A stretch of DNA of 64,000 bases, taken from the NCBI GenBank assembly GCA_963823335.1, contig CAWGLD010000005.1, forward strand, positions 96,001 to 160,000, given 5' to 3'. How positions within the stretch are numbered: the stretch's first letter is position 1; the number at the start of each line of letters is the position of its first letter. Positions 3,523 to 58,466 of the stretch are shown here, one piece after another. Source of the stretch: an uncultured delta proteobacterium. GTDB lineage: Bacteria > Desulfobacterota > Desulfobacteria > Desulfobacterales > B30-G6. The notes under the pieces are model-generated. The model saw nothing but the letters and a program-made list of their open reading frames with translations. It was not told the DNA's origin and made no database searches. A program made the translations under genes and the position numbers.

Positions 3523-3670
3523 CTAGAAGCTATCTCAAAAAAGTTTTTTGGCTCAATTTCTGTGTTGGTCCCTTGCTTCAACTCCTCGGAATACTTCAGT
3601 ATGCCTGCGGGTTGAAGTTCGGGTCCGCCTTGAACTTCAACCAAAACCCTTTTTTTGAGATGGCTTCTAG
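3523..3670. mobile_element. MITE of about 148 bp
   Basis: Terminal inverted repeats CTAGAAGCTATCTCAAAAAA / TTTTTTGAGATGGCTTCTAG (1 mismatch); CTAG at both ends; internal hairpin GGTTGAAGTTC...GAACTTCAACC. Confidence 0.75.
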
Positions 3671-3693
3671 TCATTTTCATTGGATGATATATT

Positions 3694-9435: not shown

Positions 9436-9471
9436 TGACATGAACACCACGTATTTATTATAAACAGGAGT

Positions 9472-9512
9472 GACTTTCCCCGGCTTCAACTTAGAGGACG
9501 CCGGGGAAAGTC
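9472..9512 (+). terminator. GC-rich hairpin between dctP and dctQ (attenuator or mRNA stabiliser)
   Basis: GACTTTCCCCGGC ... GCCGGGGAAAGTC perfect 13-bp stem. Confidence 0.65.
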
Positions 9513-9723
9513 CCCATAAGACCCTGAATTAAATTTATTGAGCGGTTTTTTACAAGAGATAAACCGGAATATTTTGTTAAAGGGTCCACGAGAATAAATG
9601 ACCTGCATCCAGTAGATCGGGGATGTTTCGTGAATTGCTTTTGCAGAATAGACTCGGTTCAGATCGGGTAAAAAATGCGCTCAATTTAATTTTGGACAAT
9701 GGTACCAAGAGAAAGGGGCTGAT

Positions 9724-10248: not shown

Positions 10249-11570
10249 GCCATGAACTAATTGCTCTTTTAATCTTTTTTTCGATGATGCTCATGCTTCT
10301 CACGGGACAGCGTGTTTTTGCCGCCATCGGAGGCGTTGCCACTCTTTTTGCACTCATGCTGTGGGGCGACGGAGCGGCAGAGATGCCTTTCAACGCAAGT
10401 TTTGCACTGCTGAACTGGTATCCGCTCCTGACCCTGCCCATGTTCATCTATATGGGGTATATGTTTTCCGAATCAGGCATTGCCAGTGATCTTTATCGCA
10501 TGTTTCATGTTTGGATGGGGCCGATTCACGGCGGGCTTGCCATCGGGACGATGGGGTTGATGGTTGCTGTCTCCGCTATGAACGGCCTGAGTGTGGCGGG
10601 CATGGCCATTGGTGCCAGTATCGCCATGCCGGAGATGCTAAAGCGGAAATATGACAAAGTCATGGTTACCGGCGTTATCCAGGCGGGCAGTTCCCTGGGT
10701 ATCATGGTCCCTCCCAGTGTCGTTCTGGTTCTTTATGGTATGATCGCCAGACAGCCGGTGGGTCAGCTGTGGCTGGCAGGTGTTTTCCCCGGTCTCCTGC
10801 TGGCAGGTTTGTTTATCGCTTACATCGCTATTCGCTGCCGACTTCAGCCGCATCTGGGGCCGACCTTGGCCAAAGAAGAGCTGGCACTGATCTCATGGGG
10901 AGAAAAATTACGGCTCCTCAAAGCCGGGATTATTCCCCTGGTCATTATCTTTTCCATGACAGGCCTGTTTCTGCTGGGGATCACCAGCCTGGTGGAGTGC
11001 TCTGCAGCGGGTGCCGCGGTAACGACCCTTGTGGCTTGGCTCAAAAAACGCTTAAACCGTCAAGTCCTGGAAGATACGCTTCGGCTTACCTTGAGCGTCA
11101 GTTGCATGTTCATGTGGGTCATTTTGGCGGCGCTCTGTTTTGGTGCCGTCTTTGACGGTCTTGGCGCCGTGCACGCAATTAAAAGACTGTTTCTGGATCA
11201 ATGGGGTCTCAGTCCCTTTGGTATCCTTGTTATGATGCAGCTCTCCTACATCGTAATGGGTATGTTTCTGGATGACACGGCCATGCTCATCATTGTTGCA
11301 CCGCTATATGTGCCCCTGGTTATCGAACTGGGTTACAACCCCATCTGGTACGGTGTTCTCTATACGATAACCTGCCAGATTGCTTACATGACGCCGCCGT
11401 TTGGTTATAACTTGTTCCTGATGAAAGCCATGGCGCCCAAGGAAGTGTCGCTTGCGGATATCTACCGTTCCATTGTACCCTTTGTACTGGTCATGATACT
11501 GGGCCTGATTGTTTGTATGTTGTTTCCCCAGATATCCCTGTGGCTGCCAGGTGTATATTTCGGAAATTAA
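10245..11570 (+). CDS. dctM: TRAP large permease
   Basis: LGIMVPPS, GMFLD and YMTPPFG motifs; ATGA overlap with dctQ. Confidence 0.9.
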   Translation: MSHELIALLIFFSMMLMLLTGQRVFAAIGGVATLFALMLWGDGAAEMPFNASFALLNWYPLLTLPMFIYMGYMFSESGIASDLYRMFHVWMGPIHGGLAIGTMGLMVAVSAMNGLSVAGMAIGASIAMPEMLKRKYDKVMVTGVIQAGSSLGIMVPPSVVLVLYGMIARQPVGQLWLAGVFPGLLLAGLFIAYIAIRCRLQPHLGPTLAKEELALISWGEKLRLLKAGIIPLVIIFSMTGLFLLGITSLVECSAAGAAVTTLVAWLKKRLNRQVLEDTLRLTLSVSCMFMWVILAALCFGAVFDGLGAVHAIKRLFLDQWGLSPFGILVMMQLSYIVMGMFLDDTAMLIIVAPLYVPLVIELGYNPIWYGVLYTITCQIAYMTPPFGYNLFLMKAMAPKEVSLADIYRSIVPFVLVMILGLIVCMLFPQISLWLPGVYFGN

Positions 11571-21989: not shown

Positions 21990-23234
21990 TTATTCATCAT
22001 GCAGCGCCTCCACGGGCCGTATTCCCGCAGCCCGCCGGGCCGGGAAAAGACCCGCCAGGGTACCGGACAGCACCAGTAAAAATACAGCGCCAAAGGCGGT
22101 TGTCAGATTCACTTCGGGATTTTTAAAGTAGGCTACGCCCTGAATTGTGTGAGCCATGATCTCCAGGGCAGCAATACCGGCTACCAGACCGAGATAGCCA
22201 AAGAAAAAAGTGATCAAAATCGCTTCTGTTAAAATCAGATCGATGATGGATCCTGGCGATGCACCGATGGCTTTGCGAATACCGATTTCCCGGGTCCGTT
22301 CCTTGACTGTGATCAACATGATATTGCTGACACCGACAATACCGGCCACGATGGATCCGATGCCGATGATCCATATAAATATACGTATGTTGGCAAAAAG
22401 GCGCATGTATTTTTGAAAGGACACCAGCGTATTGTGCATGAACACGGTCCGACGGTCCTCCACATTGAAGCGGTGGCGCTGAGCCAATCGTTGTCTGATG
22501 TCATGTTCAACCGCCTGGGGAGACCGCACTATCTTGGTGTCAATGGTCATGGCAAGACTGTGAACCCTATCACTCCGGGTGAACAGTTGCTGCATGGTGC
22601 TGATAGGGATATAGACACGGTCCAGACCCCATTCATCGCCTTCATCCGTGAAAACGCCCACGATTTGAAAAGCGATGTTTTTAATTTGCACATACTGCCC
22701 CACGGCAGAACCGGAGGGGAAGATCTCTTGCTTGGTTTTGGGCCCAATAATTGCTACCTTGCGTTGAAGTACCTGATCTGATGCATTCAGCAGACGGCCA
22801 GTACCGGCTTTGAGCATTTCCAGAGCGGAATACTCAGGATGTATTCCCACAACCGGGAATTTTCCTGCCAGGGATCTGTAACGAACCGTCGTGTCACGTC
22901 CCAGGAAATTTCGCGCGGCTATGTATTCCCGTCCTTTGATGGACTGTTTCAGGTCTTCATAATCATCGTTTTTAAATCGTATGCGCCGACCTTGCTTTAA
23001 CCCCTGGTATGGCATAGACGTCTGGCCGCCTCTGATCCACACGCTGTTGACGGCATCTTCGGAAAATGCCTTGCGAACACCGTTTTCAAGGCCGTACCCC
23101 GATCCCAGAAGAATAATGAGCATGAAAATTCCCCATGAAACGGCAAAACCGGTCAGAATCGTCCGCAGCTTGTTTTTTGCAAGGTTGTGGAAAATTTCTT
23201 GCAGTTTGTCTTGAAATGAACCCGGGGAGAACAT
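21990..23234 (-). CDS. MacB-type ABC permease
   Basis: KLRTILTG, GVSNIMLITVKERTREIGIRKAIGA. Confidence 0.88.
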   Translation of the reverse strand: MFSPGSFQDKLQEIFHNLAKNKLRTILTGFAVSWGIFMLIILLGSGYGLENGVRKAFSEDAVNSVWIRGGQTSMPYQGLKQGRRIRFKNDDYEDLKQSIKGREYIAARNFLGRDTTVRYRSLAGKFPVVGIHPEYSALEMLKAGTGRLLNASDQVLQRKVAIIGPKTKQEIFPSGSAVGQYVQIKNIAFQIVGVFTDEGDEWGLDRVYIPISTMQQLFTRSDRVHSLAMTIDTKIVRSPQAVEHDIRQRLAQRHRFNVEDRRTVFMHNTLVSFQKYMRLFANIRIFIWIIGIGSIVAGIVGVSNIMLITVKERTREIGIRKAIGASPGSIIDLILTEAILITFFFGYLGLVAGIAALEIMAHTIQGVAYFKNPEVNLTTAFGAVFLLVLSGTLAGLFPARRAAGIRPVEALHDE

Positions 23235-41106: not shown

Positions 41107-41120
41107 TTGATTTAAGTCAA
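41107..41120. promoter_or_regulatory. FNR/DNR-like (Crp/Fnr family) box upstream of cooS
   Basis: TTGAT-TTAA-GTCAA versus consensus TTGAT-N4-ATCAA. Confidence 0.55.
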
Positions 41121-41195
41121 TTGCTTTGTGTACTACAATGTCGTAATAGTAACTCATGCACCTAATAAACACAAACCAGTCAGGGAGGTAAGGAT

Positions 41196-43175
41196 ATGAA
41201 AGACAACAACCCTAAGAAGTCAAACCCTACGACAGTCAAAGATGTAGCGGATATCACCATCTGTGATTCCACCGCGCAGATGATTATCAAGGCTCGAAAT
41301 GACGGTGTTGAAACCGCTTTTGACCGGGCCGCCAACATGAAACCATGTCCCATTGGCGCCAAATCGGCCTGCTGTAAGCACTGTGCCATGGGGCCCTGCA
41401 GAATAAATGCCAATGACCCCTATGCCAAGGTGGGCATCTGTGGTGCCACCATCGACACCATACAATCCCGTAATCTGGCGCGGATGGTTGCCTGTGGAAC
41501 GGCCGCCCATGTGAGTCACGGGCGGAACATGTTAAATCTTTTCAGAGGGGTGGCAACGGGTGATATCACAGATTTCAAGATCAAAAACACCCTTAAACTG
41601 GAGACGTTTGCACAGGTTCTGAATATTGAGACAGCAGATCGGTCTGTGAAGGAAATTGCACTCGATCTTTGTGATGAACTCGAAAAAATATTTATTCAGA
41701 CCGATGGAGAAATGGCGTTGGTCAACCTGGTACCGGAAAAAACTCTTGAAGCCTGGCGGAAGCTGGATATCGTGCCACGTGGTGCCATGCTGGAAGTTAT
41801 GGAGCTCCTCCAGCGAACCCATGCCGGTATGGATCAGCACTACGAGAATCTGACCAAGCAGATAAGTCGTACGGCGCTGGTGGATGGCTGGGGAGGGTCC
41901 ATGGTTGCCACGGAACTATCGGATATCCTTTTCGGAACACCTTCACCGGTCGCCGCTGAGGTCGATATGGGATGCCTCAAGGAGGATGCGGTCAACATCA
42001 TTATCCACGGCCACGAACCCTATCTGGTGGAATCCATGGTGGCATCGGTGAACGACCCTTCTCTGATCAAAATCGCCAAAGAATACGGGGCCAATGGCAT
42101 CAACCTGGTGGGAATGTGCTGTTCGGGACTGGAAATGCTTTCCCGTCACGGTATTCCCCATGCCGGGAATTTTATGTCCACCGAGGCTGTGCTGGTTACC
42201 GGAGCTGTGGATGCCTTTGGTGTTGATGTACAGTGTATCCAGCAGTCCCTCGTAAGTGTCGGAAAGTGTTATGGCACACAAATATTTACGACGAATCAAA
42301 GCTGTCGGATCGAAGGAGCAGAACACATCGAATTTAATGAACATGATGCCAGGAGCTGCACCGACGCCATCGTGGAAAAAGCGATTGTTCGTTTTAAAAA
42401 CCGCAGTGCCAAGGTAGTAATCCCTAAAAACACGTCGGTCGGCATCCACGGATTTTCACATGAATACATCAACTACATGCTGGGCGGCTCCTTCAGGGGC
42501 AGCTACAGGCCCTTGAATGACAACATCATCAACGGCCGGATCAGAGGCGTTGCGGGTGTCGTTGGTTGTGTCAACCCAAGGATAAAACAAGACTGGGTAC
42601 ATGTGGAGCTGGTCAAGGAGTTGATCAAAAATGACGTGCTGGTGGTTCAGACCGGCTGTTCCCAGATTGCCCTGGCAAAAGCAGGCTTGTGCACGCCCGA
42701 GGCGGCACACTTTGCCGGGTCGGGGTTGAGGGAGGTCTGTGAAGCAGTCGGTATGCCGCCGGTACTGGGACTCGGGGCCTGTGTTGATAACAGCCGTATC
42801 CTGATCGCCTGTGCGGCAATGGTTCGTGAAGGCGGTCTCGGCGACGCCATTTCCGAATTGCCGGTGGCAGGTGCTGCACCGGAATGGTACAGCGAAAAGG
42901 CCATCGCCATCGGACAGTATTTTGTTGCTTCGGGTGTCTACACTGTCTTTGGTGTCACCTTCCCCATTGTGGAGGAAACCAAATTTCACCATCTCCTGTT
43001 TGACGCCATGGAGACACAGGGTCTCGGTAAATGGGGTTTTACCCAGGATCCCTATGAGATGGCCCGCATGATGATCGCCCACATCGATAAAAAGCGCCAG
43101 GCGCTTGGGATCGACAAGGCCAGGGAACGAACTCTGGTGGATATGGCCGACAGAAGAGAACTGGCGGCGGTATAA
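41196..43175 (+). CDS. cooS: anaerobic Ni-Fe carbon monoxide dehydrogenase catalytic subunit
   Basis: D/B-cluster C-X7-CCxxCxxGPC..CG; C-cluster ligands HGHEP, GMCC, DVQC, GCVNP, TGCS, GACVD; HVSH and SEKA. Confidence 0.93.
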   Translation: MKDNNPKKSNPTTVKDVADITICDSTAQMIIKARNDGVETAFDRAANMKPCPIGAKSACCKHCAMGPCRINANDPYAKVGICGATIDTIQSRNLARMVACGTAAHVSHGRNMLNLFRGVATGDITDFKIKNTLKLETFAQVLNIETADRSVKEIALDLCDELEKIFIQTDGEMALVNLVPEKTLEAWRKLDIVPRGAMLEVMELLQRTHAGMDQHYENLTKQISRTALVDGWGGSMVATELSDILFGTPSPVAAEVDMGCLKEDAVNIIIHGHEPYLVESMVASVNDPSLIKIAKEYGANGINLVGMCCSGLEMLSRHGIPHAGNFMSTEAVLVTGAVDAFGVDVQCIQQSLVSVGKCYGTQIFTTNQSCRIEGAEHIEFNEHDARSCTDAIVEKAIVRFKNRSAKVVIPKNTSVGIHGFSHEYINYMLGGSFRGSYRPLNDNIINGRIRGVAGVVGCVNPRIKQDWVHVELVKELIKNDVLVVQTGCSQIALAKAGLCTPEAAHFAGSGLREVCEAVGMPPVLGLGACVDNSRILIACAAMVREGGLGDAISELPVAGAAPEWYSEKAIAIGQYFVASGVYTVFGVTFPIVEETKFHHLLFDAMETQGLGKWGFTQDPYEMARMMIAHIDKKRQALGIDKARERTLVDMADRRELAAV

Positions 43176-43188
43176 GGGGAAACAGAGT

Positions 43189-43395
43189 ATGGAAACCTTA
43201 GATCACTATCTGAACAGGGGGATCAAAGAAATCATCGACGGCCATCCGCAAGTCAAGGAGATCCTGAATGAATATGGTATCGGGTGTGGTGCCTGTGATG
43301 TCGGTACGTGTCTGTTGAAGGACATCCTGTCTCTGCACCCCATATCCAAAGAACAGGAACAAACGTTGATGAAAAGGATTGCAGCGGTGTTATAA
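43189..43395 (+). CDS. small CxxC protein (DUF1858 / Hcp-associated redox-disulfide-like domain)
   Basis: 68 aa: IKEII..HPQV..IL..YGIGCGAC..GTC.LKDI. Confidence 0.6.
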   Translation: METLDHYLNRGIKEIIDGHPQVKEILNEYGIGCGACDVGTCLLKDILSLHPISKEQEQTLMKRIAAVL

Positions 43396-43458
43396 GTACT
43401 GGTTTTTTCGCGGTGTCTTTGTACGTAAACAGATCACAATTTTTTCAGGAGAATTAAA

Positions 43459-43932
43459 ATGAACCAATTTCACGCTTGTCCGGGCAGCCGGATGATGGCA
43501 TTCAACAAAGAAAAGGAAAGTACGCCCGAATCAACCGTGGGGGCATTTCAGTCCCAGTTGCGGCAATGGCCGATTCAATTACATTTGATATCACCGGAGT
43601 CACCCTACTACCAGGACGCGGATGTGGTTTTGACGGCCGACTGCGTAGCATACGCCCTGGGGGATTATCATCGCGAGTACCTCAAAGGGCGGTCACTCGC
43701 CATTGCCTGCCCCAAGCTTGACACGGGTCAGGAAATCTATAGAGAGAAAATAACGTCCTGGGTCGATGATGCCAAAATAACGTCCTTGAACGTGATGATA
43801 ATGCAGGTGCCCTGCTGCACGGGATTGCTCAACCTGGCCAAGCAGGCTTTGCAGAAAGCGGAACGAAAGATACCGCTATCTTATACGGTTGTGGGCGTTC
43901 AGGGCGAAATACTGGAGCAGCAAATTGTTTGA
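43459..43932 (+). CDS. Cys-rich domain of the Hcp-associated Fe-S protein family, lacking the N-terminal ferredoxin domain
   Basis: CPGSR, SQLRQWPIQLHL, ADC, IACPKLD, MQVPCC. Confidence 0.7.
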   Translation: MNQFHACPGSRMMAFNKEKESTPESTVGAFQSQLRQWPIQLHLISPESPYYQDADVVLTADCVAYALGDYHREYLKGRSLAIACPKLDTGQEIYREKITSWVDDAKITSLNVMIMQVPCCTGLLNLAKQALQKAERKIPLSYTVVGVQGEILEQQIV

Positions 43933-43952
43933 TGAAATCTCTTGGACACGCA

Positions 43953-43974
43953 GGACAAAATAATGTAAATATCA
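43953..43974 (+). promoter_or_regulatory. candidate Rrf2 operator 1
   Basis: GGACA-AAATA-ATG-TAAA-TATCA, same layout as the sites before norB and rrf2. Confidence 0.45.
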
Positions 43975-44095
43975 TTCCATAACCGTAAAGCGGTAAAGGG
44001 TCAGGAGACGGCAGGTCTCCGAGTGTTTAAGTCCGGAACTGCCTTCTGGCACGCGGTTTATAGAACAATCAATTCCTTCATGGACAGGAGATGGT

Positions 44096-45052
44096 ATGGA
44101 CAAAAAACGATGGGACGACATACTTGTAAACGATCACGAAATGATTGAACGAGCGATGGATGTATTGAAAAATGAGCTCGGGAAACTGCCGCATAAATCT
44201 CCCGACCTGTTTTCATTGAAACGTACCATTGATTTCCTGCTGGAGTTTGGAGACCGGATTCACAACAAAAAAGAAGAGAACTGGCTGTTTCCCCTGCTGA
44301 TCAAAAGCGGTATCCCCGAAGATGGCCCCATACGGGTCATGGTAGGAGAGCACGCGTACGAAAGATCGCTTCTGGACCAGATGGCCGGGGACATTGACAG
44401 TCTCAGCGGCATGACCCCGGGGGCAAAAGACGATTTCAAAAACAAAGGCATGGAATATCTGGAAGTCCGCGCCAATCATATCTGGAAGGAAAACGATGTC
44501 CTGTATGCCATGGGCAGAAAGGCTTTTTCCGAGGCTGACAACACCTATCTTGTCAAGGCTTTTGACGATTTCAGCGCCAGTGTCTACGGAAATGACTTCG
44601 CGCAAAAAATATCGGCAATGCTTCATGAACTCGAGGGCGGGAAAGCTGCTAGAACCAGCCTTTTGACCAACCTGACGTATGAACAGATCGACGCTATCAT
44701 GGAGACCCTCCCTTTTGAAGTCACCTTTGTTGATGCGGAAGATTCAGTGGCCTATTTCAACCGCCTGGACAAGGAAAAGATATTTGTCCGCAGTCGTTCG
44801 GTAATCGGCCGAAAAGTCACCAAGTGTCATCCGGGCAAGAGCATCGACAAGGTTGAGCAGATCGTCAGCGGGTTCAAGAGCGGCGAACTGGACAAAGCGG
44901 AGTTCTGGATCGCCTTGGGCGGGCAAATGGTGTACATCCGTTATTTTCCGGTAAGGGATGATCAGGGGAACTATCTAGGGGTTCTGGAAGTGACCCAGGA
45001 GATCAGCGAAATACAGAAACTGACCGGTGAGAAGCGGTTGCTTGATTCGTAA
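44096..45052 (+). CDS. hemerythrin plus PAS domain protein (DUF438-like)
   Basis: HEMI, HNKKEE..LFP, EH, HIWKEN.VLY; PAS part LPFEVTFVD, CHP, YLGVLEVTQ. Confidence 0.85.
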   Translation: MDKKRWDDILVNDHEMIERAMDVLKNELGKLPHKSPDLFSLKRTIDFLLEFGDRIHNKKEENWLFPLLIKSGIPEDGPIRVMVGEHAYERSLLDQMAGDIDSLSGMTPGAKDDFKNKGMEYLEVRANHIWKENDVLYAMGRKAFSEADNTYLVKAFDDFSASVYGNDFAQKISAMLHELEGGKAARTSLLTNLTYEQIDAIMETLPFEVTFVDAEDSVAYFNRLDKEKIFVRSRSVIGRKVTKCHPGKSIDKVEQIVSGFKSGELDKAEFWIALGGQMVYIRYFPVRDDQGNYLGVLEVTQEISEIQKLTGEKRLLDS

Positions 45053-45071
45053 GTATTCGTAAGCCAATCAG

Positions 45072-45120
45072 AAAAAAGAAAGGGAAACCAACCTGAAGTT
45101 GGCTTCCCTTTTGTCTTTTT
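45072..45120. terminator. bidirectional terminator
   Basis: AAAGGGAAACCAAC-ctgaa-GTTGGCTTCCCTTT with A/T tails between convergent genes. Confidence 0.7.
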
Positions 45121-45265
45121 ATACCGCTTGTCATAATAATGTTCCGAAAATAGGATGGCGGCATAAGGGGTTGTAGCAGAAAAAAGGTCCTCAATCGGAA
45201 CGTTTTTCTGACAACCCCTATAAGCGACAACGTCGCGTTTCATAAAATCGTCACCACGATTTTAT

Positions 45266-47539
45266 TTACAGTTCAATTCCAAGTTTTTCCCAGACCGACT
45301 CACCGTCTTTGATTTCAGTGGCTTTCAAATGCGGATAAGTGGTGATCAGAAAGTATGCCAGGGGCAGAACGCCCAGTACAATGATAATGGTATCTGGTAA
45401 CGCGCGAAATGTCCCCAGAATAACCACGGCATCCCGTTCAAAGAAGTCGGCACTCCTGGCGACCCACAATCCTTCCTTAAATGCCGTCCAAGTCTGCATG
45501 GCCCCCACCGGTAACAAGGTGAAAAAAGCCATCAGGAACAGACCCCCGTTGAGACCCCAGAAAGAAAGTTTGAGGATGCCATCCTTCCAGTAAGCTTTGT
45601 CCACCAGACCGCGCCAGGAAAAGAGCAGCAAGGCAACGGACAGCATGCCATACGTGCCGAACATGGCGGTGTGACCATGGTGCATGGTCAGATAGGTGCC
45701 GTGTTCATAGAAATTGATGATGGGCAGATTGATCAGGAACCCAAAGATACCTGCGCCTAAAAAATTCCAGAAGGAGGCGGCCACCAGAAAATACATGGGC
45801 CATTTGTAACTGAACGTTCGGCCTGCTTTCTGAATTTCGTTGAACTCCTTCAATCCACGCACCACCAGTGTTATGAGCGGCACCGGTTCCATGCTGGAGA
45901 AGATAGCCCCCCATCCGATCCAATACGCAGCCCCGCCATACCAGTAATAATGGTGCGCTGTCCCGATAATGCCGCTGATAAAGGTGATGGCCGCTGTAAA
46001 ATAGGCCACCCTGAGAGCCGACTTGGCTGTCGCCAGTCCCATGGCAACCATGAGAAGTGCGATGACGGCGATACCGAAAAACTCAAAAATGCTCTCCACC
46101 CAGAGGTGAACCACAAACCAGCGCCAGTAGTCTGCCATGGTAAGATGAGAACCCTTGCCGTAAAACAGGCCGAAACCGTAAAAGGCCACTACGAGAACGG
46201 CACTGAAGACATAGAACCATATCAAAGCGCTGAATTCATCTTTGTGCTTGCTCAAGTGTCCGCCGACTGCCCGATATACCACCAGCAGCCAGAAAATCAG
46301 TCCCACAAAGAGCAGAATCTGCCAGACACGTCCCAGTTCGAGAAATTCCCAGCCCTGATGACCAAACCAGAACCAAAGATCACCCAGGAATCCCTTGATT
46401 CCAAGCGCTTCACCGGCGAGACTGCCCACGGCAACGAGGAGGACCGCCCCGAAAAGCAGCTGAACCAGAAGGCCTTGCTTGACGGGTTCTTTGCCGCCGA
46501 TGATGGGTGCCAGGTAAATGGCAGAGGCCAGCCAGGTGGTGGCGATCCAGAAAACCATCAACTGCAGATGCCATGTTTTGGCCAGACTGTAGGGTATGAG
46601 CTTGGCCACAAAGGGCAGAAAAAAGGTGCCCGGATGGATGGTGTAGTGGGCCAGCAATCCACCGAAGGTCGTCTGCAGCAGAAACAGCAGAATCACCACC
46701 ACAAAAAACTTGGCCGCCTTGAATTGACTGGGGGTCAGGGGCATGTCCACTAGTTTTTCAGAAAGTGCCACCCCCTTGGGCGCTCCATACCATAATCCAT
46801 AGCGATGAATCCAGAAGACAAAAAGGCCCAGGACCACCAGCAGTGCCAGGATACCGGCGATGGAATAGAAGTAGGTCTCGGTACTGGCGACATTCCCAAC
46901 GCGTTTGTCCGCAGGCCAGTTGTTGGTGTAGGAAAAATCGGTTCCGGGACGAAGCGTCGAGGCGACCCAGGCAGACCAGAAGAAAAACCGCCCAACCTGC
47001 AGGCGCTGTTCTTCTTCGGGAATGGTGTTTGGTAAAAAGCCGTAGCGTTGCTCCCCTTTCTCGAAGGTGCTGCCCCAGTGCTGCACAACCCTTTCCAGTC
47101 CCTTGGTCTGAGCAGCGGTCAAGGTAAGCGTGTCCGTGGCCGGATCATAGCGGTTGGGTTTGATCTCATGGGTTGTTTTGACATCGATAAGACCTTTTTG
47201 GAGGTCGTCGAGGTCCTGGTACATTTTTCCGTAGTCATTTAAAGCCAGGGTGTCGCCGATAGCCTCAGCCAGAATGTGCAGGCTGGTGGCGGAAAATTCC
47301 GGCCCCCGTTGGGACCCGTGCCCCCAGACAGCGCCATGATCCATCAAACCATAGCGCTGGTAGACATCCTGTCCGGCAAGGATATCCGTTTTTAGCATCA
47401 GCAGCTTGCCGTTATTGTCGACTACTTTGCCCGGGTAGGGCGGCAGGTCTTTTTTCATGACAATACCGCCACCCAGCAAAACTCCCATGGCGACGATGAA
47501 ACAGAGAATGGCTGCCCACTTGAGTGTGTTGAGAGACAT
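45266..47539 (-). CDS. norB: quinol-dependent nitric oxide reductase (qNor)
   Basis: 757-aa single subunit; G.VWGHG, WRWFVVHLWVE..FE.F, GTAHHYYW, HGH.A.FG. Confidence 0.92.
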   Translation of the reverse strand: MSLNTLKWAAILCFIVAMGVLLGGGIVMKKDLPPYPGKVVDNNGKLLMLKTDILAGQDVYQRYGLMDHGAVWGHGSQRGPEFSATSLHILAEAIGDTLALNDYGKMYQDLDDLQKGLIDVKTTHEIKPNRYDPATDTLTLTAAQTKGLERVVQHWGSTFEKGEQRYGFLPNTIPEEEQRLQVGRFFFWSAWVASTLRPGTDFSYTNNWPADKRVGNVASTETYFYSIAGILALLVVLGLFVFWIHRYGLWYGAPKGVALSEKLVDMPLTPSQFKAAKFFVVVILLFLLQTTFGGLLAHYTIHPGTFFLPFVAKLIPYSLAKTWHLQLMVFWIATTWLASAIYLAPIIGGKEPVKQGLLVQLLFGAVLLVAVGSLAGEALGIKGFLGDLWFWFGHQGWEFLELGRVWQILLFVGLIFWLLVVYRAVGGHLSKHKDEFSALIWFYVFSAVLVVAFYGFGLFYGKGSHLTMADYWRWFVVHLWVESIFEFFGIAVIALLMVAMGLATAKSALRVAYFTAAITFISGIIGTAHHYYWYGGAAYWIGWGAIFSSMEPVPLITLVVRGLKEFNEIQKAGRTFSYKWPMYFLVAASFWNFLGAGIFGFLINLPIINFYEHGTYLTMHHGHTAMFGTYGMLSVALLLFSWRGLVDKAYWKDGILKLSFWGLNGGLFLMAFFTLLPVGAMQTWTAFKEGLWVARSADFFERDAVVILGTFRALPDTIIIVLGVLPLAYFLITTYPHLKATEIKDGESVWEKLGIEL

Positions 47540-47558
47540 TTTGCACCTCCTTTAATAA

Positions 47559-47580
47559 AGATAAGTTCATCAAGATATCT
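47559..47580 (-). promoter_or_regulatory. candidate Rrf2 operator 2
   Basis: Sense strand AGATA-TCTTG-ATG-AACT-TATCT, just upstream of the norB RBS. Confidence 0.5.
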
Positions 47581-47636
47581 ACAATTTCCATATAGAGAAA
47601 ATAATTTCCCTGTTGGCTATTTTTCAATGAGGCAAC

Positions 47637-48023
47637 TTACAATATCTGATCAATGGTTGTATCGTGCAGAATTTTCTCAAATTGTTCGGAAACGATTCGC
47701 CAGCGCAAATGGAGTCCGCACTTTCCATCGCAGGTGTGCATGCCCAGTAAGCATTTTTTAAAATCATCGACCTTCATGAAGAGATTGACAATGTCAAAAA
47801 GAAGGATTTCAGACGCAGGATGGGATAGTTTTACTCCGCCACCCCTGCCGCGGACTGCTTCGATGATACCTGCCTGAGACAGGCGATTGAGAATTTTAGA
47901 AAGAAAATTGTGGGGAATATCCATTTCCTGTGAAATAAGGGCGGACTGGACAGGTTTGCCGGTGTTGTGGGCGGCTAAAAACCCCATGGCACGCAGCGCA
48001 TAGATGGCGGTTTGATTCAACAT
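47637..48023 (-). CDS. Rrf2-family Fe-S transcriptional regulator
   Basis: YALRA, FLSKIL..L..AG, RG.GGG, C-X6-C-X3-C-X2-H. Confidence 0.9.
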   Translation of the reverse strand: MLNQTAIYALRAMGFLAAHNTGKPVQSALISQEMDIPHNFLSKILNRLSQAGIIEAVRGRGGGVKLSHPASEILLFDIVNLFMKVDDFKKCLLGMHTCDGKCGLHLRWRIVSEQFEKILHDTTIDQIL

Positions 48024-48143: not shown

Positions 48144-49205
48144 TTAGGTAAGCATGATCTTTCCGGCAGGTTCGGAAAGCACTTCGCCGATAATGGCGGC
48201 GTCTTCTATACCGGCGCTCTTTAAGCTATGCAGAAGATCTTCGGCCTTGTCATTGCCGACACCCATGAGCAGACCACCCGAGGTCTGCGGGTCGAAAAGA
48301 ATGTCGACTAGCACGCTATCCATGTGCGGGGCAAGAATTAACAGGGACGATCGAAAGGCTTTGTTTTTGAATGCGCCGCCGGGGATGAAGCCGCTCCTGG
48401 CATACTGAATGGCTTCGGGAATAATGGGGATGGCTTTTGATTCAAGACGGATACCGATGGATGGGCTGGACAGCATCTCCGCGAGGTGCCCTATAAGACC
48501 GAATCCGGTGATGTCGGTGCAGGCGCTCACCGGGTATGTCTTCATCACTTTGGCGGCGTCACGGTTCAATGTCGCCATGAGACGGCTGATGGATCCGATG
48601 ATTTCCTGGGAAGCGATGCCTCCTTTGATGGCCGTGTTGATGATACCTGTGCCGATGGGTTTGGTGAGGATCAGCTGATCCCCCGGCTGTAGACCCGTGT
48701 TTTGCACAATATGGTCCGGATGAACAAAACCGGTCACCGAGAGACCGTATTTCAACTCTTTGTCTTGAACGCTGTGGCCGCCGAGCAGAACAACACCGGC
48801 TTCCTTGATTTTTTCCAGCCCGCCTTCCAGAATGGCACGCAGGATGCTGATATCCATTTGATCGGAAGGAAAAGCCACCAGGTTCATGGCGGTTTTGGGT
48901 TCGCCGCCCATGGCATAGACATCGCTCAATGCATTTGCAGCGGCTATCTGGCCGAACCAGAAGGGATCGTCCACAATGGGTGTAAAGAAGTCCACCGTCT
49001 GAATGATAGCCAGATCATCCGATATCCGGTAAACACCGGCATCGTCAGCCCCATCGAGGCCTACCAGTACATTGGGGTCCTGCGGTAGTTTAAGACCACA
49101 GAGTGCTTTGTCCAGGTCCCCTGGAGCCAGTTTAGAGGCTCAGCCTGCACCGGAAACGGTCTGGGTCAAACGGACCGGGCCTTTGCCGCTCTGGATGGTT
49201 TTCAT
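48144..49205 (-). CDS. selD: selenide,water dikinase, selenocysteine-containing (UGA at 49140-49142, codon 22)
   Basis: MKTIQSGKGPVRLTQTVSGAG-U-ASKL in frame with DDAGVY, DFFTPIVDDP, TDITGFGL and DPQTSGGLL; 353 aa. Confidence 0.93.
49111..49125 (-). promoter_or_regulatory. candidate bacterial SECIS hairpin
   Basis: TCCAGG-GGA-CCTGGA starting 15 nt after the UGA; G in the apical loop. Confidence 0.65.
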
Positions 49206-49299
49206 TTTACCTGGTTTCATCGGTTGGATCATTGTGGCTCTCCTGGATGATGTTTTTCCTTAATATAATCAATAAGTGCGATGTTTCAAGACCTAAACG

Positions 49300-53244: not shown

Positions 53245-55245
53245 TCAAATTAATCCGAACTTTTTCATTTTATGATACAGTGTTCGACGTGGAATATTCA
53301 GTAATCTTAAGGTCTTATTACGGTTCCAATTGGATTTGTTGAGTGCATCGAGAAGAAGATTCTTTTCATAAGACGCCACTTTATGTTTAAGATTAAGGTC
53401 TGAAGGATCCATCGCGATTGATGTTTTAGGGCGGTTATCTGCGGGGGTGTTGAAGAGACGATAACTTTCCAAAAAATCGAGATTGCCTATGGCGATATAT
53501 CGTTGCAATGTATTTTGTAGTTCTCTGACATTTCCAGGCCAGTGGAAGTTATAAATTGCCTCCATGTATTTAGCCGGCAGAACGTGCGGTTGCTTTCCCT
53601 TGCTGAAGATTGAAAGGAAATGATCGACAAGTAGTTGAATGTCTTCCTTTCGATCCCTTAACGGCGGTAACGTTATAGGGACTATATGGATTCGATAATA
53701 GAAATCTTCTCGCATACTTCCCTTCTGCACGGCTTCGGTTATGTCTCTATTGGTGGCGGCAATGATCCGAAAATTTGAATGGCATATCTCATTGCTTCCA
53801 ACAGGTGAGTAGCCGCCTCCCTCAATGGCCCTCAACAGCTTACCCTGCATTCCCAGATCGATGCCGCCTACTTCATCAAGAAATAAATCACCCTCATTTG
53901 CTTTCTCAAGAAAGCCGGGTTTGTCCATATGGGCTCCGGTGAAAGCACCTTTTTTATGGCCAAAAAAAGAACTTTCCAACAAAGACTCTGGAATCGCCTG
54001 GCAATTGACGGTCACAAAAGCTTTTTCTGAACGAGCGCTCATGTTATGTATAGCTTTGGCCACCAGTTCTTTTCCCGTGCCCGATTCACCATAGATAACA
54101 ACGTTTGCATCAGAACTTGCTGCACGGATAATCAATTCATACACTTTTTGCATGGCCGGGCTTTTGCCGATAATATCAGCGAATCTAAAGCGATCTTTAA
54201 TGCTGGAGCGGAGTTTGATATTTTCCAGATGAAGATTTTCAGCATGTTCCTGGGTAGCTATTTCATTGAGCTTTCTTTCATTGATATCTCTCATGGTACA
54301 TAGAATTGCAGGTTTTCCATCCCATTGAATCCAGGAGTTATGCCCTTCAACCCAAAATTTTCGCCCATCCTTTGAAATGCATATTCCTTGAAAAATTTCC
54401 ATTCTGGGACTGTTTTTCTGATACGTATCACCGAGGGCTTCGAAGTGTTCTTTAATCTTTTGATAACGCGCTTTAAATTCATCGGATATCAAGTCCAAAA
54501 CATTTTTGCCAATCACCTGGCGTTTGTCTGAATATCGGAACATAATCAAAAAGGCGTCATTGACAAAAAGCAATTTGTTATCCCGGGATAGCATGATTCC
54601 GTCCGCAACATGGTTAGCCAGGAGTCGATATCGTTCCTCGCTTTCACCATACATCTTTTCAGCGCCTTTGCGTTCTTCTATTTCTTTGTTCAAAAGAATG
54701 TTTATCGCATTTAGGTCAGCGGTTCGTTTTTCAACCCTGTGCTCCAAGTCTTCATTGAGCCTGCGAACATTATCCTCGGCTTGGCTACGTACAGCAATTT
54801 CTTTTATGAGTAGGTCATTATTTTCTTTCAACTTCCTTTGCATCAAGCGAAAGGATAGATGAGTTCGAACCCGTGCCAATACTTCATCTCGCTGAAAAGG
54901 CTTGGTGATGAAGTCAACTCCCCCGGCTTCAAATCCTTTAACTTTATCTTTTATTGCCGTCAGGGCAGTCATAAATATTACAGGTATATCTTTTGTTGCT
55001 TCTTCTGCTTTCAAACGGCTGCATATCTCAAACCCATTTTGGCCAGGCATGAGCACATCCAGTAAAATAAGGCCCGGCCGGGTATAAGAGGCTTTTTGGA
55101 GTCCACTTTCACCGTCGCGGGCAACGAGTGCTTGAAATCCATTGTCTTCCAGAGTAGCCGAAATGAGGCCTATATTGATAGGATCATCATCGATTATCAG
55201 AATTGAATTGGATTCCTGATCGTGATATTGCAGGGATGCTTTCAT
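53245..55245 (-). CDS. sigma54-dependent response regulator (REC-coiled coil-PAS-AAA+-HTH)
   Basis: LLDVLMP, GESGTGKE, GAFTGA, WPGNVREL. Confidence 0.92.
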   Translation of the reverse strand: MKASLQYHDQESNSILIIDDDPINIGLISATLEDNGFQALVARDGESGLQKASYTRPGLILLDVLMPGQNGFEICSRLKAEEATKDIPVIFMTALTAIKDKVKGFEAGGVDFITKPFQRDEVLARVRTHLSFRLMQRKLKENNDLLIKEIAVRSQAEDNVRRLNEDLEHRVEKRTADLNAINILLNKEIEERKGAEKMYGESEERYRLLANHVADGIMLSRDNKLLFVNDAFLIMFRYSDKRQVIGKNVLDLISDEFKARYQKIKEHFEALGDTYQKNSPRMEIFQGICISKDGRKFWVEGHNSWIQWDGKPAILCTMRDINERKLNEIATQEHAENLHLENIKLRSSIKDRFRFADIIGKSPAMQKVYELIIRAASSDANVVIYGESGTGKELVAKAIHNMSARSEKAFVTVNCQAIPESLLESSFFGHKKGAFTGAHMDKPGFLEKANEGDLFLDEVGGIDLGMQGKLLRAIEGGGYSPVGSNEICHSNFRIIAATNRDITEAVQKGSMREDFYYRIHIVPITLPPLRDRKEDIQLLVDHFLSIFSKGKQPHVLPAKYMEAIYNFHWPGNVRELQNTLQRYIAIGNLDFLESYRLFNTPADNRPKTSIAMDPSDLNLKHKVASYEKNLLLDALNKSNWNRNKTLRLLNIPRRTLYHKMKKFGLI

Positions 55246-58200
55246 TTATTGATCTTCTTATATGTCTTGATAAATCTCAGGATTTTACCTTCCTCAAAGT
55301 GTTCGGCTAAAGTGCACAGCGTACGGGCAAAGGGGCCATATTCAGGTGCCATTTTATCGATTTGTTTTGCTTTATTTAGGATTCCGCGCATATCTCCGCG
55401 CAAGGCCAGGTCATACAAAAAATCTATCTCGGATGGCGGTGCAGGATTGGTTATAGATTTTGTTTGTCCTTCAACGAACGCGTTTGTGGCCGCTTCATCA
55501 TAAATCCATTCCAGCCTCAAATATTTTTCTATCATGGCGGCAAGTTTAGTCCAGTTAATGGGTTTCGGTAGAAAACCATCATAGCCCATCTCTTTGCTCA
55601 ACGCCTGATCTTTTTCCGAAACGCTGGCTGAAACAGCGATGATGGTCGTCGATTTGCATTCGGCCATGTTGCGTATTTGTTTCACCGCTTCAAGGCCATC
55701 CATTACCGGCATCCAACGGTCCATTAGTATGAGATCAAAGCACATTTCCTTTGCGAATTGTACTGCCTGTAAACCATTTTTCGCTTGAACAACCTTAAAT
55801 CCCACCGGCTCCAGCAGGTCAACCAATATATCCCGGTTGGACGAAATGTCATCAACGACCAACACCTTCCGTTGGGGTCCCTTGTATCCTTTCATAATAC
55901 GACCTGAGGACCGGACCTCTTCTTCCGCCAACGCGGCCACCTGTAATACGAGTTCAAACCAGAAGCGGCTACCTGTGCCAACACGGCTTTCAACGGACAG
56001 GTTGCCACCCATTACCTTTACCAGTTGGTTACTGATTGCCAAACCCAGGCCTGTTCCACCGATTTGATAATCCTTATTTCTAACCTGCTCGAAAGGTTTA
56101 AAAATGCGTTCATACTGATCGTGAGAGATCCCGATACCTGTATCCTCTATTTCGAAACGAAGCCGGACATGTGATTCCAGCGGATTGGGATTTATTGGTT
56201 TAGGAACGTCCTTATTGATAATGCGCAAGACCACATGACCGGTTTCGGTGTACTTGATGGCATTGTCCAGTAAATTGAGCAAAATCTGGCGAAGACGGGT
56301 CTCATCAGCAAGCAGGAAGGGCGGAGTGGTGTTCGATTTTTCAAGATTGACTTTTAGGCCTTTGGTTTCAGCACGAGAGTGCGTGACCGCGACGATGTTT
56401 TCAATGAAGCTCGGTAAATGGATGGGGGTAACCTGAAGTTCAACCTTGCCGGACTCAATCCTGGCAATATCCAGGATATCGTTTATCAGTGTCAAAAGAT
56501 GTTCGCCGCTGCTGTGGATGATATGAAGTCGTTCCTTTTGCCTCTTGGTCAGGTTTTTCTTCTCTTTAAGGATCTGGGCATATCCTATTACCGCATTTAG
56601 CGGCGTGCGTAACTCATGGCTCATGCTGGCCAAAAATTCGCTTTTCGCCCGGCTCGCAGCCTCAGCTTGATCCTTGGCGACAGATAACTCCGCGGTTCTT
56701 TCTATAACCTTTGTTTCGAGATCGTCATGCGCTTTCTTTAATATCTCTTGAGTCTGTCTGCGATCGGTGATATCGGTCAGAATTCCTTCTATACATATCA
56801 GTCGACCATCATTGTTTCGGATGGCTCTCGAGTTGAGAGAGGTCCAAATGATGTTCTTGTCTTTTTTATACAATTGAACTTCAAAGCTTTCAACTACGTC
56901 ATTCTCCTCAAACCGCTTTAAGAGTTCTTCCCGACGCGTATAATCGACATAAGTCTGCTTTCCGATATCGGAGACGCTTGTTACCAGATCGGTGGGGTCG
57001 TCATATCCCAGGATCGAAGCCATGGAGGGGTTGGCATTGAAAATTCTGCCATCGGGGGTTGTTTGATAAATACCCTCCACGGCATTTTCGAAAATACCAC
57101 GATATTTCTCTTCGGCTTCTTTGAGTTCATCAAGTTGTTCCCTGAGTTTGTTGGTCATTTCATTGAACGATTTGGAAAGCTGTCCGACCTCGTCATTGCC
57201 CTTGATATGAATCGTTTTGTCCAGATTGCCTTTCCGGATCTCGTTGGCGACCCTCGTCAATTTTTTTATCGGTGAGACCGCGGAGATCCAAATGACAAAG
57301 ATCACAATGGTAAATAAGAGAAGGCTGGCACCAATGGCACCGAAAATGAAGTTTATGCGAAAGCGTGGGAGAAATTCGATTATTTCCTGCCTGGGTACGA
57401 CAATTGCGAAATACCAATCAAGAATATTCAATTTGTACGAAAATAAGTAATGAATATTTTCGTTTTGATAAAACCGGCGAATATCGAATCTGCTGCTGTC
57501 GTTTCTATTCTGGGCGATTTCGGCGATGACACGTGTAAGCTCCTTGTCCTCCAACTCGGAACTGCTGAGCAAGGTGCCCATTTTTGCGCTTTTTAACAAA
57601 TTAATTAGATACTTGGGGTGGACGATAATGTTTTTTTGGGCATCGAAAATAAATCCATAACCCGAGTTGAAGTATTTTTTATCTAAAATTTCCGAGTAAA
57701 TATCGTCGAGAATAACATCGTGTCCTACAATACCGAGAAATTCCCGGTCTATATAGATGGGTGTAATCAGGCTGGTCATCCAATGCTTCCATATGGAATC
57801 GTAATAGGGTTTGGTCCATTTGGCCTTGCCTTGAGGACTGTGTTGGGGATCCGCGATATAGTAAAATATGTCCTGATTGAAATCGTGGTTCGCTTCGATC
57901 TGTAGCGCCCAGTCTTTCTCATAAATGCGGATAAGCTGGTGCCTGGTGATCAAATACATGTTGAATACAAACGGCTTGACTCCCTTGGCATAATTTTCGA
58001 ATTTTTCCTCGGTTGCAGATATTATTTGCCGGATCTCGTCATCCAATTCACTGCGATTGGATAAAAAAACACCGGAGATATCTTGATCGGAATAGGCCGC
58101 AAGATTGGTGCGAAGCGCACCGTCAATATATTGAAATTTATAATTAAAATTCATGTTTGATTTCAAGGGACTCTGAAGCCAATTTTGAATGATCTTTTCC

Positions 58201-58466
58201 GATTTTTGACCCAAGGCTTCCAACCACTTGAAATGCTCATCGATATCTTTGGCTTCATCGATGGTGAGAATGCTGATGGACTCTTCCATGTTTTCAAGGA
58301 TTTGGATTTCAAGAATTCTTTCAGCTACGAGACCGATTACGAGAAAAAAACATAAAAAAACAGGAGCGACCGCATATGTTACCTTCTGAATCAGGTTCAG
58401 CCTGCCCCAAACAAAACTGATTTTTTGTTGAAATATCCTCAATATGTTTATACTATCTGTCGACAT
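55242..58466 (-). CDS. hybrid sensor histidine kinase (Cache-HAMP-PAS-HisKA-HATPase-REC)
   Basis: WTKPYYD Cache motif, SHELRTPLN, NLLDNAIKYT, GTGLGL, LMDRWMP. Confidence 0.92.
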   Translation of the reverse strand: MSTDSINILRIFQQKISFVWGRLNLIQKVTYAVAPVFLCFFLVIGLVAERILEIQILENMEESISILTIDEAKDIDEHFKWLEALGQKSEKIIQNWLQSPLKSNMNFNYKFQYIDGALRTNLAAYSDQDISGVFLSNRSELDDEIRQIISATEEKFENYAKGVKPFVFNMYLITRHQLIRIYEKDWALQIEANHDFNQDIFYYIADPQHSPQGKAKWTKPYYDSIWKHWMTSLITPIYIDREFLGIVGHDVILDDIYSEILDKKYFNSGYGFIFDAQKNIIVHPKYLINLLKSAKMGTLLSSSELEDKELTRVIAEIAQNRNDSSRFDIRRFYQNENIHYLFSYKLNILDWYFAIVVPRQEIIEFLPRFRINFIFGAIGASLLLFTIVIFVIWISAVSPIKKLTRVANEIRKGNLDKTIHIKGNDEVGQLSKSFNEMTNKLREQLDELKEAEEKYRGIFENAVEGIYQTTPDGRIFNANPSMASILGYDDPTDLVTSVSDIGKQTYVDYTRREELLKRFEENDVVESFEVQLYKKDKNIIWTSLNSRAIRNNDGRLICIEGILTDITDRRQTQEILKKAHDDLETKVIERTAELSVAKDQAEAASRAKSEFLASMSHELRTPLNAVIGYAQILKEKKNLTKRQKERLHIIHSSGEHLLTLINDILDIARIESGKVELQVTPIHLPSFIENIVAVTHSRAETKGLKVNLEKSNTTPPFLLADETRLRQILLNLLDNAIKYTETGHVVLRIINKDVPKPINPNPLESHVRLRFEIEDTGIGISHDQYERIFKPFEQVRNKDYQIGGTGLGLAISNQLVKVMGGNLSVESRVGTGSRFWFELVLQVAALAEEEVRSSGRIMKGYKGPQRKVLVVDDISSNRDILVDLLEPVGFKVVQAKNGLQAVQFAKEMCFDLILMDRWMPVMDGLEAVKQIRNMAECKSTTIIAVSASVSEKDQALSKEMGYDGFLPKPINWTKLAAMIEKYLRLEWIYDEAATNAFVEGQTKSITNPAPPSEIDFLYDLALRGDMRGILNKAKQIDKMAPEYGPFARTLCTLAEHFEEGKILRFIKTYKKINK

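Follow-up and report, generated by a model that had tools for sequence, protein, structure and literature searches.

What does a nickel carbon monoxide dehydrogenase (Ni-CODH) do when its gene stands outside the ACS and hydrogenase operons? Most such genes are without an assigned role, and a neighbourhood survey of 2026 still treats the matter as open (PMC13056359). The question is raised here by a cooS gene in a stretch of 64,000 nt from an uncultured Desulfobacterales bacterium (contig CAWGLD010000005.1, positions 96,001 to 160,000 of the forward strand; hereafter the window), where cooS is followed by genes for three accessory proteins, named here small68, p157 and HrPAS, and faces genes for a nitric oxide (NO) reductase and an Rrf2-family regulator on the opposite strand. 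The CooS lineage, as sampled in 80 related loci, is split: one group lies in operons for defence against O2 and reactive oxygen species (ROS), the other among NO-type genes with an HcpR-class promoter box. Our best explanation, put forward tentatively, is that a canonical, CO-oxidising Ni-CODH has been recruited into a nitrosative/redox stress regulon, in which cooS-small68-p157-HrPAS would form one operon of this bacterium. The features concerned are, in window coordinates:

41107-41120: CRP/FNR-type (HcpR-like) box TTGATTTAAGTCAA, 76 nt upstream of the cooS ATG
41131-41145: second palindrome TACTACAATGTCGTA, between the box and the likely -10; candidate repressor operator
41196-43175, + strand: cooS, catalytic subunit of a Ni,Fe-CO dehydrogenase, 659 aa (Pfam, NCBIfam and PDB matches)
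43189-43395, + strand: small68, 68-aa CxxC protein, weakly DUF1858-like
43459-43932, + strand: p157, 157-aa AF_0155-domain protein (PF27217) with five invariant Cys
44096-45052, + strand: HrPAS, 318 aa, hemerythrin (residues 8-139) and PAS_10 (199-303)
45079-45111, both strands: terminator-like hairpin, 15-bp stem with T-runs, between the convergent units
45266-47539, - strand: qnor, quinol-dependent nitric oxide reductase (qNor), 757 aa (domain matches and PDB 3ayf)
47558-47581, - strand: 24-nt imperfect palindrome TAGATATCTTGATGAACTTATCTT, just upstream of qnor; candidate Rrf2 operator
47637-48023, - strand: rrf2, Rrf2-family regulator, 128 aa from the second ATG (TIGR00738 match)

The two convergent units are thus cooS-small68-p157-HrPAS (+) and qnor-rrf2 (-). 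An earlier, sequence-only reading of this DNA had listed the same genes at these positions, which domain matches and open reading frame (ORF) calls bear out; its start coordinate, 41107, is the first base of the FNR-type box. It had also reported no hcp, cooC, cooF, acs or hydrogenase gene nearby, and this holds throughout the 64-kb window, where Hcp, CooC, CooF, ACS and hydrogenase domains are absent from all 55 long ORFs and from a 96-aa ORF overlapping cooS. An Rfam scan of the whole window returned zero families.

Genome contigs scanned with CooS gave 375 stretches encoding relatives, of which the best 80 were kept (CooS identity 70-88%); the window's own genome is not among these loci (numbered with the prefix L), all of which are contigs of metagenome-assembled genomes (MAGs), mostly labelled Desulfobacterales or other Desulfobacterota. 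In a midpoint-rooted neighbour-joining tree of 76 full-length CooS sequences, the window and 11 loci (L001, L002, L003, L005, L012, L017, L018, L021, L022, L024 and L028) stand apart from the 69 others; L012, L014, L039, L043 and L061, truncated or interrupted, were left off the tree and placed by best BLAST match. The 696 ORFs within 4 kb of cooS were clustered and Pfam was run on one representative per cluster. O2/ROS-defence families occur within this distance in 46 of the 69 other-group loci and in none of the 11 subclade loci. Counted over the same 69, they are flavodiiron proteins (22 loci), Fur/PerR (17), glutaredoxin (17), peroxiredoxin (13), ferredoxin-thioredoxin reductase beta (10), rubrerythrin (9, plus 4 of a second type), desulfoferrodoxin (6), CydA (6) and rubredoxin (5). 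A sigma54-PAS activator gene is found near cooS in 26/69. By way of example, one gene order in this group runs cooS, small ORF, flavodiiron protein, 115-aa ORF, Rrf2 (30-34%) and cydAB, and L050, L069, L078, L048 and L049 may be cited for O2/ROS-defence operons.

The subclade has instead AF_0155, DUF1858-like::hemerythrin and hemerythrin-PAS proteins, qNor, Rrf2 and, once, hcp, arranged as follows:

L017: window order from the Liv genes to dnaK, including cooS-small68-p157-HrPAS, without qnor-rrf2
L024: cooS-p417-small68::hemerythrin-p157-rrf2 (67%)-qnor (82%), all on a single strand
L022: hcp divergent from HD-Fer4::AF_0155-cooS-kinase::hemerythrin; p157-small68::hemerythrin on the other strand; qNor (41%) 7.6 kb away
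L028: HD-Fer4::AF_0155-cooS
L021: HrPAS (76%) upstream of cooS, p417 downstream
L001: NorB-cytochrome-c-like ORF, NifS, NifU and nitroreductase upstream of cooS, DUF2249 downstream
L002 and L003: no NO-type neighbours; an XdhC/CoxI-like gene downstream of cooS
L005: no NO-type neighbours upstream; no downstream flank
L012 and L018: contigs end at or just past cooS

The proposal that cooS belongs with NO-stress-type genes is upheld by these recurrent neighbours, together with a common promoter box, and the linkage goes beyond chance because it recurs in relatives. The same cannot be said of the idea that CooS occupies the usual position of Hcp. The ORF at L022:6143-7819 scores 462.7 bits against the Hcp model NF003658 (cutoff 367, first two thirds of the model aligned) and lies side by side with cooS, which contradicts it; because the two genes adjoin there, CooS would be an addition to Hcp and no substitute for it.

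Some further genes of these loci deserve mention in their own right. XdhC/CoxI-family genes accompany the Ni-CODH gene at L002:3136-4217, L003:2212-3293 and L022:16054-17217; proteins of this family are accessory factors of molybdenum hydroxylases. The p417 gene (ca. 415 aa; L024:4576-5829 and L021:4415-5647) directly follows cooS, its two copies sharing 68% identity, and gives no Pfam or NCBIfam match, and in L001 three copies of DUF2249 surround cooS (3632-3883, 9439-9702 and 10396-10614).

The cooS box of the window matches the CRP/FNR-type pattern exactly, and a looser pattern has 3 matches in the window vs 0.45 expected; at up to 2 mismatches the box is not enriched there (6 matches vs 4.8 expected). 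Its consensus, TTGAYnTARGTCAA, is conserved upstream of cooS in L001, L002, L003, L005, L012, L017 and L018. At one mismatch or fewer it has 14 matches in 147 kb of subclade loci, all of them intergenic, vs 4 in 1.005 Mb of the other loci, and it stands within 2.5 kb upstream of cooS in 9/11 subclade loci (not L024 or L028) vs 1/58 others (Fisher p = 9e-9, relatedness ignored). It occurs twice before HrPAS in L021, and L022 has four boxes: one in the divergent promoter of hcp and the cooS operon, one upstream of small68::hemerythrin and two upstream of qnor.

The window box aaTTGATTTAAGTCAAtt, conserved in the orthologous promoters of these nine loci, fits the HcpR-regulon palindrome atTTGAccnnggTCAAat, an FNR-like motif derived by Rodionov et al. 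for Desulfotalea/Desulfuromonas (PMC545781; PMC1274295). A published HcpR site, AaTTGAttcAGGTCAAgg, nearly equals the box of L017, the CooA motif TGTCGGCnnGCCGACA differs from the cooS box, and an HcpR site has been predicted before the CODH-associated hydrogenase operon of Desulfovibrio vulgaris (all PMC545781). By its letters, the cooS box thus fits the HcpR class and is a candidate site for an HcpR-like regulator.

A second palindrome with the family consensus TACCACAwTGTGGTA lies 9-10 bases downstream of the box. It precedes cooS, or the operon's first gene, in 10 of the 11 subclade loci with 0-3 mismatches (not in L028, where the operon starts at the contig edge) and also in the other-clade loci L010:29, L051:9806, L064:339 and L070:9891, in many cases immediately following a TTGACA -35. 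A cooS-specific repressor probably binds here, where it would block the -10, and the TACC..GGTA shape is reminiscent of sites bound by CsoR/RcnR-type metal sensors. Elsewhere in the window, a second FNR-type box, TTGACTGTGATCAA (22303-22316), stands ca. 97 nt upstream of a 122-aa ORF (22413-22781) without a family match.

Is the enzyme itself a CO dehydrogenase? The cooS gene has a GGGAGG ribosome-binding site at its start, and its product scores 536.8 bits against Pfam Prismane and 577.7 bits against TIGR01702, the NCBIfam model of the anaerobic CO dehydrogenase catalytic subunit (cutoff 478). Apart from TIGR01702, only cdhA was matched, and the Hcp equivalog models TIGR01703 and NF003658 gave no match to this CooS. 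The Cys residues of the D-cluster (C51, C59) and B-cluster (C60, C63, C68, C82; spacings 8-1-3-5-14), the C-cluster ligands (H273, C309, C347, C458, C488, C529) and the catalytic His and Lys (H105, K568) are all present and are conserved in 75-76 of the 76 aligned relatives. Their roles were assigned by what we take to be the numbering of CODH-II of Carboxydothermus hydrogenoformans (ChCODH-II), with which the spacing pattern agrees. The loss of canonical C-cluster Cys that marks the deviant CooS-V type is not seen, every Cys being in place. The best PDB match is 6t7j (553.4 bits), followed by 6ytt (527.6), 6vwy and 6b6v (521 and 514) and 6elq (500.5); more distant are 1su6 (398), 1jqk (394) and 7b7q (275.8 bits). 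These chains we take to be, in turn, Thermococcus AM4 CODH-2, the CODH of Clostridium autoethanogenum, that of D. vulgaris (6vwy/6b6v), ChCODH-IV, ChCODH-II, the CooS of Rhodospirillum rubrum and CooS-V. The CODHs of Thermococcus and D. vulgaris have been placed in clade E (PMC13056359). Judged from its residues and model matches, the window CooS is a canonical Ni-CODH.

Nine CooS positions separate the window subclade (11 sequences) from the other group (65), namely 107, 110, 114, 166, 191, 212, 369, 459 and 565, with the residues (subclade/other) S/D, R/M, N/D, F/Y, D/G, M/V, S/R, V/T and Y/M. S107, R110, N114, V459 and Y565 adjoin H105, C458 or K568 in the sequence. Two solved relatives have D, N and M at 107, 459 and 565.

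The accessory proteins are less easily named. A 96-aa ORF overlapping cooS was considered for the first of them and rejected, the real start being the ATG at 43189, which gives 68 aa. This small68 scores 23.3 bits against DUF1858 (PF08984, cutoff 32.2) and 20 bits against TIGR03980, the hybrid cluster protein-associated redox disulfide domain (cutoff 44.95). Among 21 relatives the CxxC (C33, C36) never varies and C41 hardly does; 18 of them show weak, sub-threshold DUF1858 matches. Relatives of near length number only 20, one of them with a precomputed PF08984 label, and a sequence search of the PDB returned spurious DARPin repeats only. In L022 and L024, small68 forms the N-terminal part of a 263-aa fusion with hemerythrin.

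The second protein, p157, carries the precomputed label PF27217 (AF_0155) in the protein database, as do all 120 listed relatives, and its Atlas clusters are 100% PF27217; the local Pfam copy is without this model, and p157 accordingly has no local match. C7, C62, C84, C119 and C120 are invariant in 80 sequences. The family comprises 1728 representative clusters at E <= 0.001, and most relatives, at 200-320 aa, carry the AF_0155 domain C-terminally. Of 12 longer ones sampled, 10 have an N-terminal 2x[4Fe-4S] ferredoxin domain and two look like chimeric gene calls. From this comparison, p157 appears to correspond to the C-terminal domain of Fer4::AF_0155 (FrdX-like) ferredoxins, occurring on its own. 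Its AlphaFold2 model (predicted local distance difference test score 91.4) found no PDB match at E <= 0.001 with Foldseek, and the sequence search of the PDB gave nothing meaningful; a relationship with beta-carbonic anhydrases was discarded, the best TM-scores (0.38-0.39) being too weak to use. A predicted complex of p157 with CooS (score 0.00, mark 0.32) is evidence neither way, CooS having been entered as a monomer. The partner site of CODHs lies at the dimer interface.

HrPAS belongs to the wide hemerythrin-PAS_10(-DUF438) family. Its PDB relatives 3cax and 2qkp are both uncharacterised, its His/Glu pairs are H14..E18, H56..E60, H86..E89 and H128..E132, and its architecture is that of the YtfE-like hemerythrin-PAS proteins of sulfate reducers. 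It is alike in architecture alone: against the RIC/YtfE model TIGR03652 (cutoff 204.7) HrPAS gave no match, and the small68::hemerythrin fusion of L024 reached 20.7 bits. Between p157 and HrPAS, the 163-nt spacer (43933-44095) holds a GGAGAC...GTCTCC hairpin without a T-run; against L017 it aligns poorly except in the ribosome-binding region and in a short segment that follows the stop codon of p157.

On the opposite strand, the product of qnor is by its sequence a quinol-dependent NO reductase, with a NorB cytochrome-c-like domain (PF22085, 186.5 bits), a COX1 domain (PF00115, 179.7 bits) and a match of 669.9 bits to PDB 3ayf over residues 6-747. Rrf2 scores ca. 107 bits against the superfamily model TIGR00738 (cutoff 73.3) and 55 bits against the NsrR equivalog NF008240, which is below that model's cutoff of 182. 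Its C-x6-C-x3-C motif is common to the window and L024, and so is the 24-nt element before qnor, which has no other window match at up to 3 mismatches (0.01 expected). The arrangement resembles NsrR-norB units, in which an Rrf2 regulator with three Cys is encoded directly upstream of the NO reductase gene and a palindrome precedes the latter; it differs from them in the low NsrR score and in the Cys spacing. The candidate operator also differs from the published NsrR consensus gATGyAT-N5-ATrCATc (PMC1274295). The earlier reading had treated qnor and rrf2 as members of the cooS cluster. Their adjacency proves to be an indel, absent from the otherwise syntenic closest relative L017, and in the window the two units are separated and have different cis-elements.

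Evidence from other organisms bears on the accessory genes as well. The expectation that such genes flank hcp fits the Roseburia plasmid NZ_CP135163.1, where hcp, a Crp/Fnr regulator and Fer4::AF_0155 are annotated in a row; around a second match in the plasmid collection, from Acetoanaerobium, hcp is missing to a distance of 5 kb, and an Rrf2 gene stands 2 kb upstream of the match. In Clostridioides difficile, frdX and hcp are direct HcpR targets, and the knock-down of either leads to NO sensitivity (PMC12915319). RNA-seq of Desulfovibrio desulfuricans 27774 (sulfate + NO vs sulfate, 2 v 2 replicates) gave 31 induced genes (Table 4 of PMC5701242). Among them are cooS (log2 fold change 2.01, adjusted p 0.0119), a YtfE-like hemerythrin-PAS gene (1.98), an adjacent short hypothetical gene (1.38) and an Rrf2 regulator (1.24); cooS is named in that table only, without discussion in the text (PMC5701242).

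Four known systems may be set beside the locus. In the stress-associated CODH-IV of C. hydrogenoformans, as here, a canonical CooS without ACS or hydrogenase is found among detoxification genes, and the idea that CO supplies reductant for stress defence is common to both. The sister CooS clade of the window is like it in context (rubrerythrin, peroxiredoxin, flavodiiron and PerR neighbours), while the window and its subclade differ in having NO-type neighbours (AF_0155/FrdX-like, DUF1858-like, hemerythrin-PAS, qNor, Rrf2 and Hcp) and an HcpR-class promoter box. CODH-IV has reportedly been linked to rubrerythrin, in work of Wu in 2005 and Domnik in 2017. Oxidative stress responses are a known CODH context (PMC3328121), and ChCODH-IV combines O2 tolerance with an operon for an FeS/NAD-FAD oxidoreductase (PMC13056359).

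With the hcp-frdX-hcpR module of Desulfovibrio and Clostridia the locus has in common an HcpR-class FNR-type box and a gene for a ferredoxin-like partner, and Fer4::AF_0155 adjoins hcp and Crp/Fnr on the Roseburia plasmid and hcp in L022. It differs in that the Prismane-family enzyme is a true CODH, p157 is without the Fer4 half and no hcpR is seen nearby; the likeness of AF_0155 to FrdX is one of gene context. YtfE/RIC and Ddes_1165/DVU2590, known proteins induced by NO (PMC5701242), likewise combine a hemerythrin di-iron domain, joined here to PAS, with a short adjacent protein, and the ScdA_N-type fusion of RIC resembles the DUF1858-like::hemerythrin fusion of L022 and L024; the window form, unlike these, is divided over two genes that flank p157 and falls short of the RIC model, and Ddes_1165 is likened to it by architecture. 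Finally, cooS-cooC with CooA (D. vulgaris, R. rubrum) is similar in having a monofunctional cytoplasmic CooS, as sulfate reducers do, under a CRP/FNR-family site and different in that cooC and cooA are missing here and the box reads TTGA-N6-TCAA, which is not the CooA motif.

We propose that an HcpR-like activator responsive to NO or nitrite would switch the cooS operon on, a second factor repressing it via the palindrome. CooS would oxidise CO, and the low-potential electrons would exit through the AF_0155 protein, a FrdX-like Fe-S carrier in place of CooF, to cytoplasmic detoxifying reductases, e.g., Hcp or flavodiiron proteins. The DUF1858-like protein and HrPAS may act as a split YtfE/RIC-like di-iron module that senses or repairs NO damage to metal clusters, those of CooS possibly among them. 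The qnor-rrf2 pair would be a separate, Rrf2-controlled unit and a non-obligatory partner, placed beside the cooS operon more than once in the subclade because, we suggest, both serve NO defence. In a bolder form of this proposal, the CooS subclade would be dedicated to feeding low-potential electrons into an NO-reducing system (CO + 2 NO -> CO2 + N2O), coupled via AF_0155 (FrdX-like) to Hcp or flavodiiron enzymes and indirectly to qNor, with an HcpR-like NO sensor as the switch; we regard this as quite improbable.

Several points weigh against recruitment into a stress regulon. The window units converge on a terminator-like hairpin, cooS alone being preceded by the box and qnor alone by the 24-nt element. 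In L017, whose CooS is 88% identical, synteny extends from the Liv transporter to dnaK, yet qnor-rrf2 is missing. L002, L003 and L005 carry the box and cooS but no NO-type neighbours in the available flanks. HcpR cannot be told from FNR or other paralogues by the box class, and a more general anaerobic or redox regulator could be at work; boxes close to the consensus stand before rubrerythrin genes in L019 and L045 of the other clade, and neither the window nor the subclade ORFs, in a non-exhaustive scan, yielded a CRP/FNR gene. The locus encodes no route by which electrons from CooS would reach qNor, which uses quinol. As for the accessory proteins, the small68 scores stay beneath the curated cutoffs, AF_0155 has neither a known function nor a structural relative in the PDB, and Fe-S binding and electron transfer by p157 are inferred from the five invariant Cys and the ferredoxin-domain fusions. 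The relatives are all MAG contigs, many of them short, and the tree is without support values. The D. desulfuricans CooS is another kind of CODH, encoded in a cooS-cooC/CooA setting, and its induction comes from 2 v 2 replicates (PMC5701242).

Some of these points feed an alternative in which the neighbours are unrelated, the locus being an ordinary, anaerobically expressed (FNR-type) CO-scavenging operon and no NO/CO module; HrPAS would then be an O2 or redox sensor and qnor-rrf2 would have arrived by an unrelated insertion. The missing qnor-rrf2 at the same site in L017, the convergent units with their hairpin and separate cis-elements, a box class common to FNR-type regulators and also found before rubrerythrin genes, and the three loci with box and cooS alone all speak for it. 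Against it stand the three independent arrangements in which qnor is linked to cooS accessory genes (the window, L024 on the same strand, and L022), the identical boxes of L022 before hcp/cooS, small68::hemerythrin and qnor, and the NO response of the accessory families elsewhere (PMC5701242, PMC12915319), and we judge it unlikely, if far from negligible. A somewhat less probable alternative takes the operon to be one of maintenance. The accessory proteins would keep CooS working while CO oxidation serves normal energy metabolism or CO detoxification; the DUF1858-like protein and HrPAS would repair, in the manner of RIC/YtfE, CooS clusters damaged by NO or O2, and AF_0155 would be a cluster or metal donor or a reductant for CooS that could substitute for the missing CooC. 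The RIC-like architecture of the fusions in L022 and L024, with the weak TIGR03652 match of 20.7 bits, agrees with this, as do the NifS and NifU genes that adjoin cooS in L001 and the absence of cooC from the window and of CooC-type domains from the scanned neighbour-cluster representatives. Ddes_1165 has moreover been proposed as a YtfE equivalent (PMC5701242). However, the RIC equivalog cutoff is far from reached, AF_0155 relatives are mostly fused to 2x[4Fe-4S] domains and one stands beside hcp on a plasmid, which fits an electron carrier better than a maturation factor, and maintenance leaves the box common to qnor and hcp unexplained.

It is highly improbable, by comparison, that CooS itself detoxifies by reducing NO or hydroxylamine on the CODH scaffold, as Hcp or the deviant CooS-V might, an activity that the sequence-only reading had also entertained. 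CooS and Hcp do belong to a common Pfam family (Prismane), hydroxylamine reductase activity is reported to be gained by C-cluster variants (PMC6344411), and five of the nine diagnostic substitutions of the subclade are adjacent in sequence to H105, C458 or K568. But all canonical Ni-Fe-S ligands are intact and invariant, the protein passes the CODH equivalog without any Hcp-model match, the CooS-V-type chain is far weaker (275.8 bits vs 500-553 for the canonical enzymes), and the hcp beside cooS in L022 counts against CooS as the detoxifying enzyme.

Beyond the two units, a Liv-type ABC transporter is encoded upstream of cooS on the - strand, and selD, ybaK, cyclophilin and dnaK are the genes beyond rrf2. 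The selD gene (48144-49220, -) is a selenoprotein gene with an in-frame TGA at codon 27, within the GAGU-ASK active-site motif; of its product, just the 283 aa downstream of the TGA appear in the plain ORF list. Five kb past rrf2 (53245-58466, -), two regulatory proteins are encoded: a 1074-aa hybrid histidine kinase with dCache, HAMP and PAS domains, and a PAS-containing sigma54 response regulator of 666 aa. Genes for a sigma54 response regulator and a Cache kinase immediately precede cooS in L017.

In the literature on CODH genomic context, on DUF1858 and on HcpR with CODH, supplementary tables excluded, we found no description of a linkage between cooS and NO genes. It is likewise absent from the consulted text of PMC13056359, PMC6344411 and PMC3328121, and the supplementary neighbour tables of PMC13056359 may list it. 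This suggests that the theme of stress-associated CODHs is already known and that the NO-type neighbours and the HcpR-class box are new. For Ni-CODHs that stand alone, the two-group pattern gives a concrete, testable role, CO oxidation within stress defence, and it names candidate partners currently without a known function (AF_0155, DUF1858-like and hemerythrin-PAS proteins). If the bolder electron-source proposal were true, there would be CO-driven NO detoxification, or even an energy-yielding reaction, in relatives of sulfate reducers. If the coupling is true, it would link the cycles of CO and NO in anoxic sediments, would explain the NO induction of cooS in Desulfovibrio transcriptomes, and would point to reactive-gas-tolerant CODH variants and helper proteins of relevance to biocatalysis.

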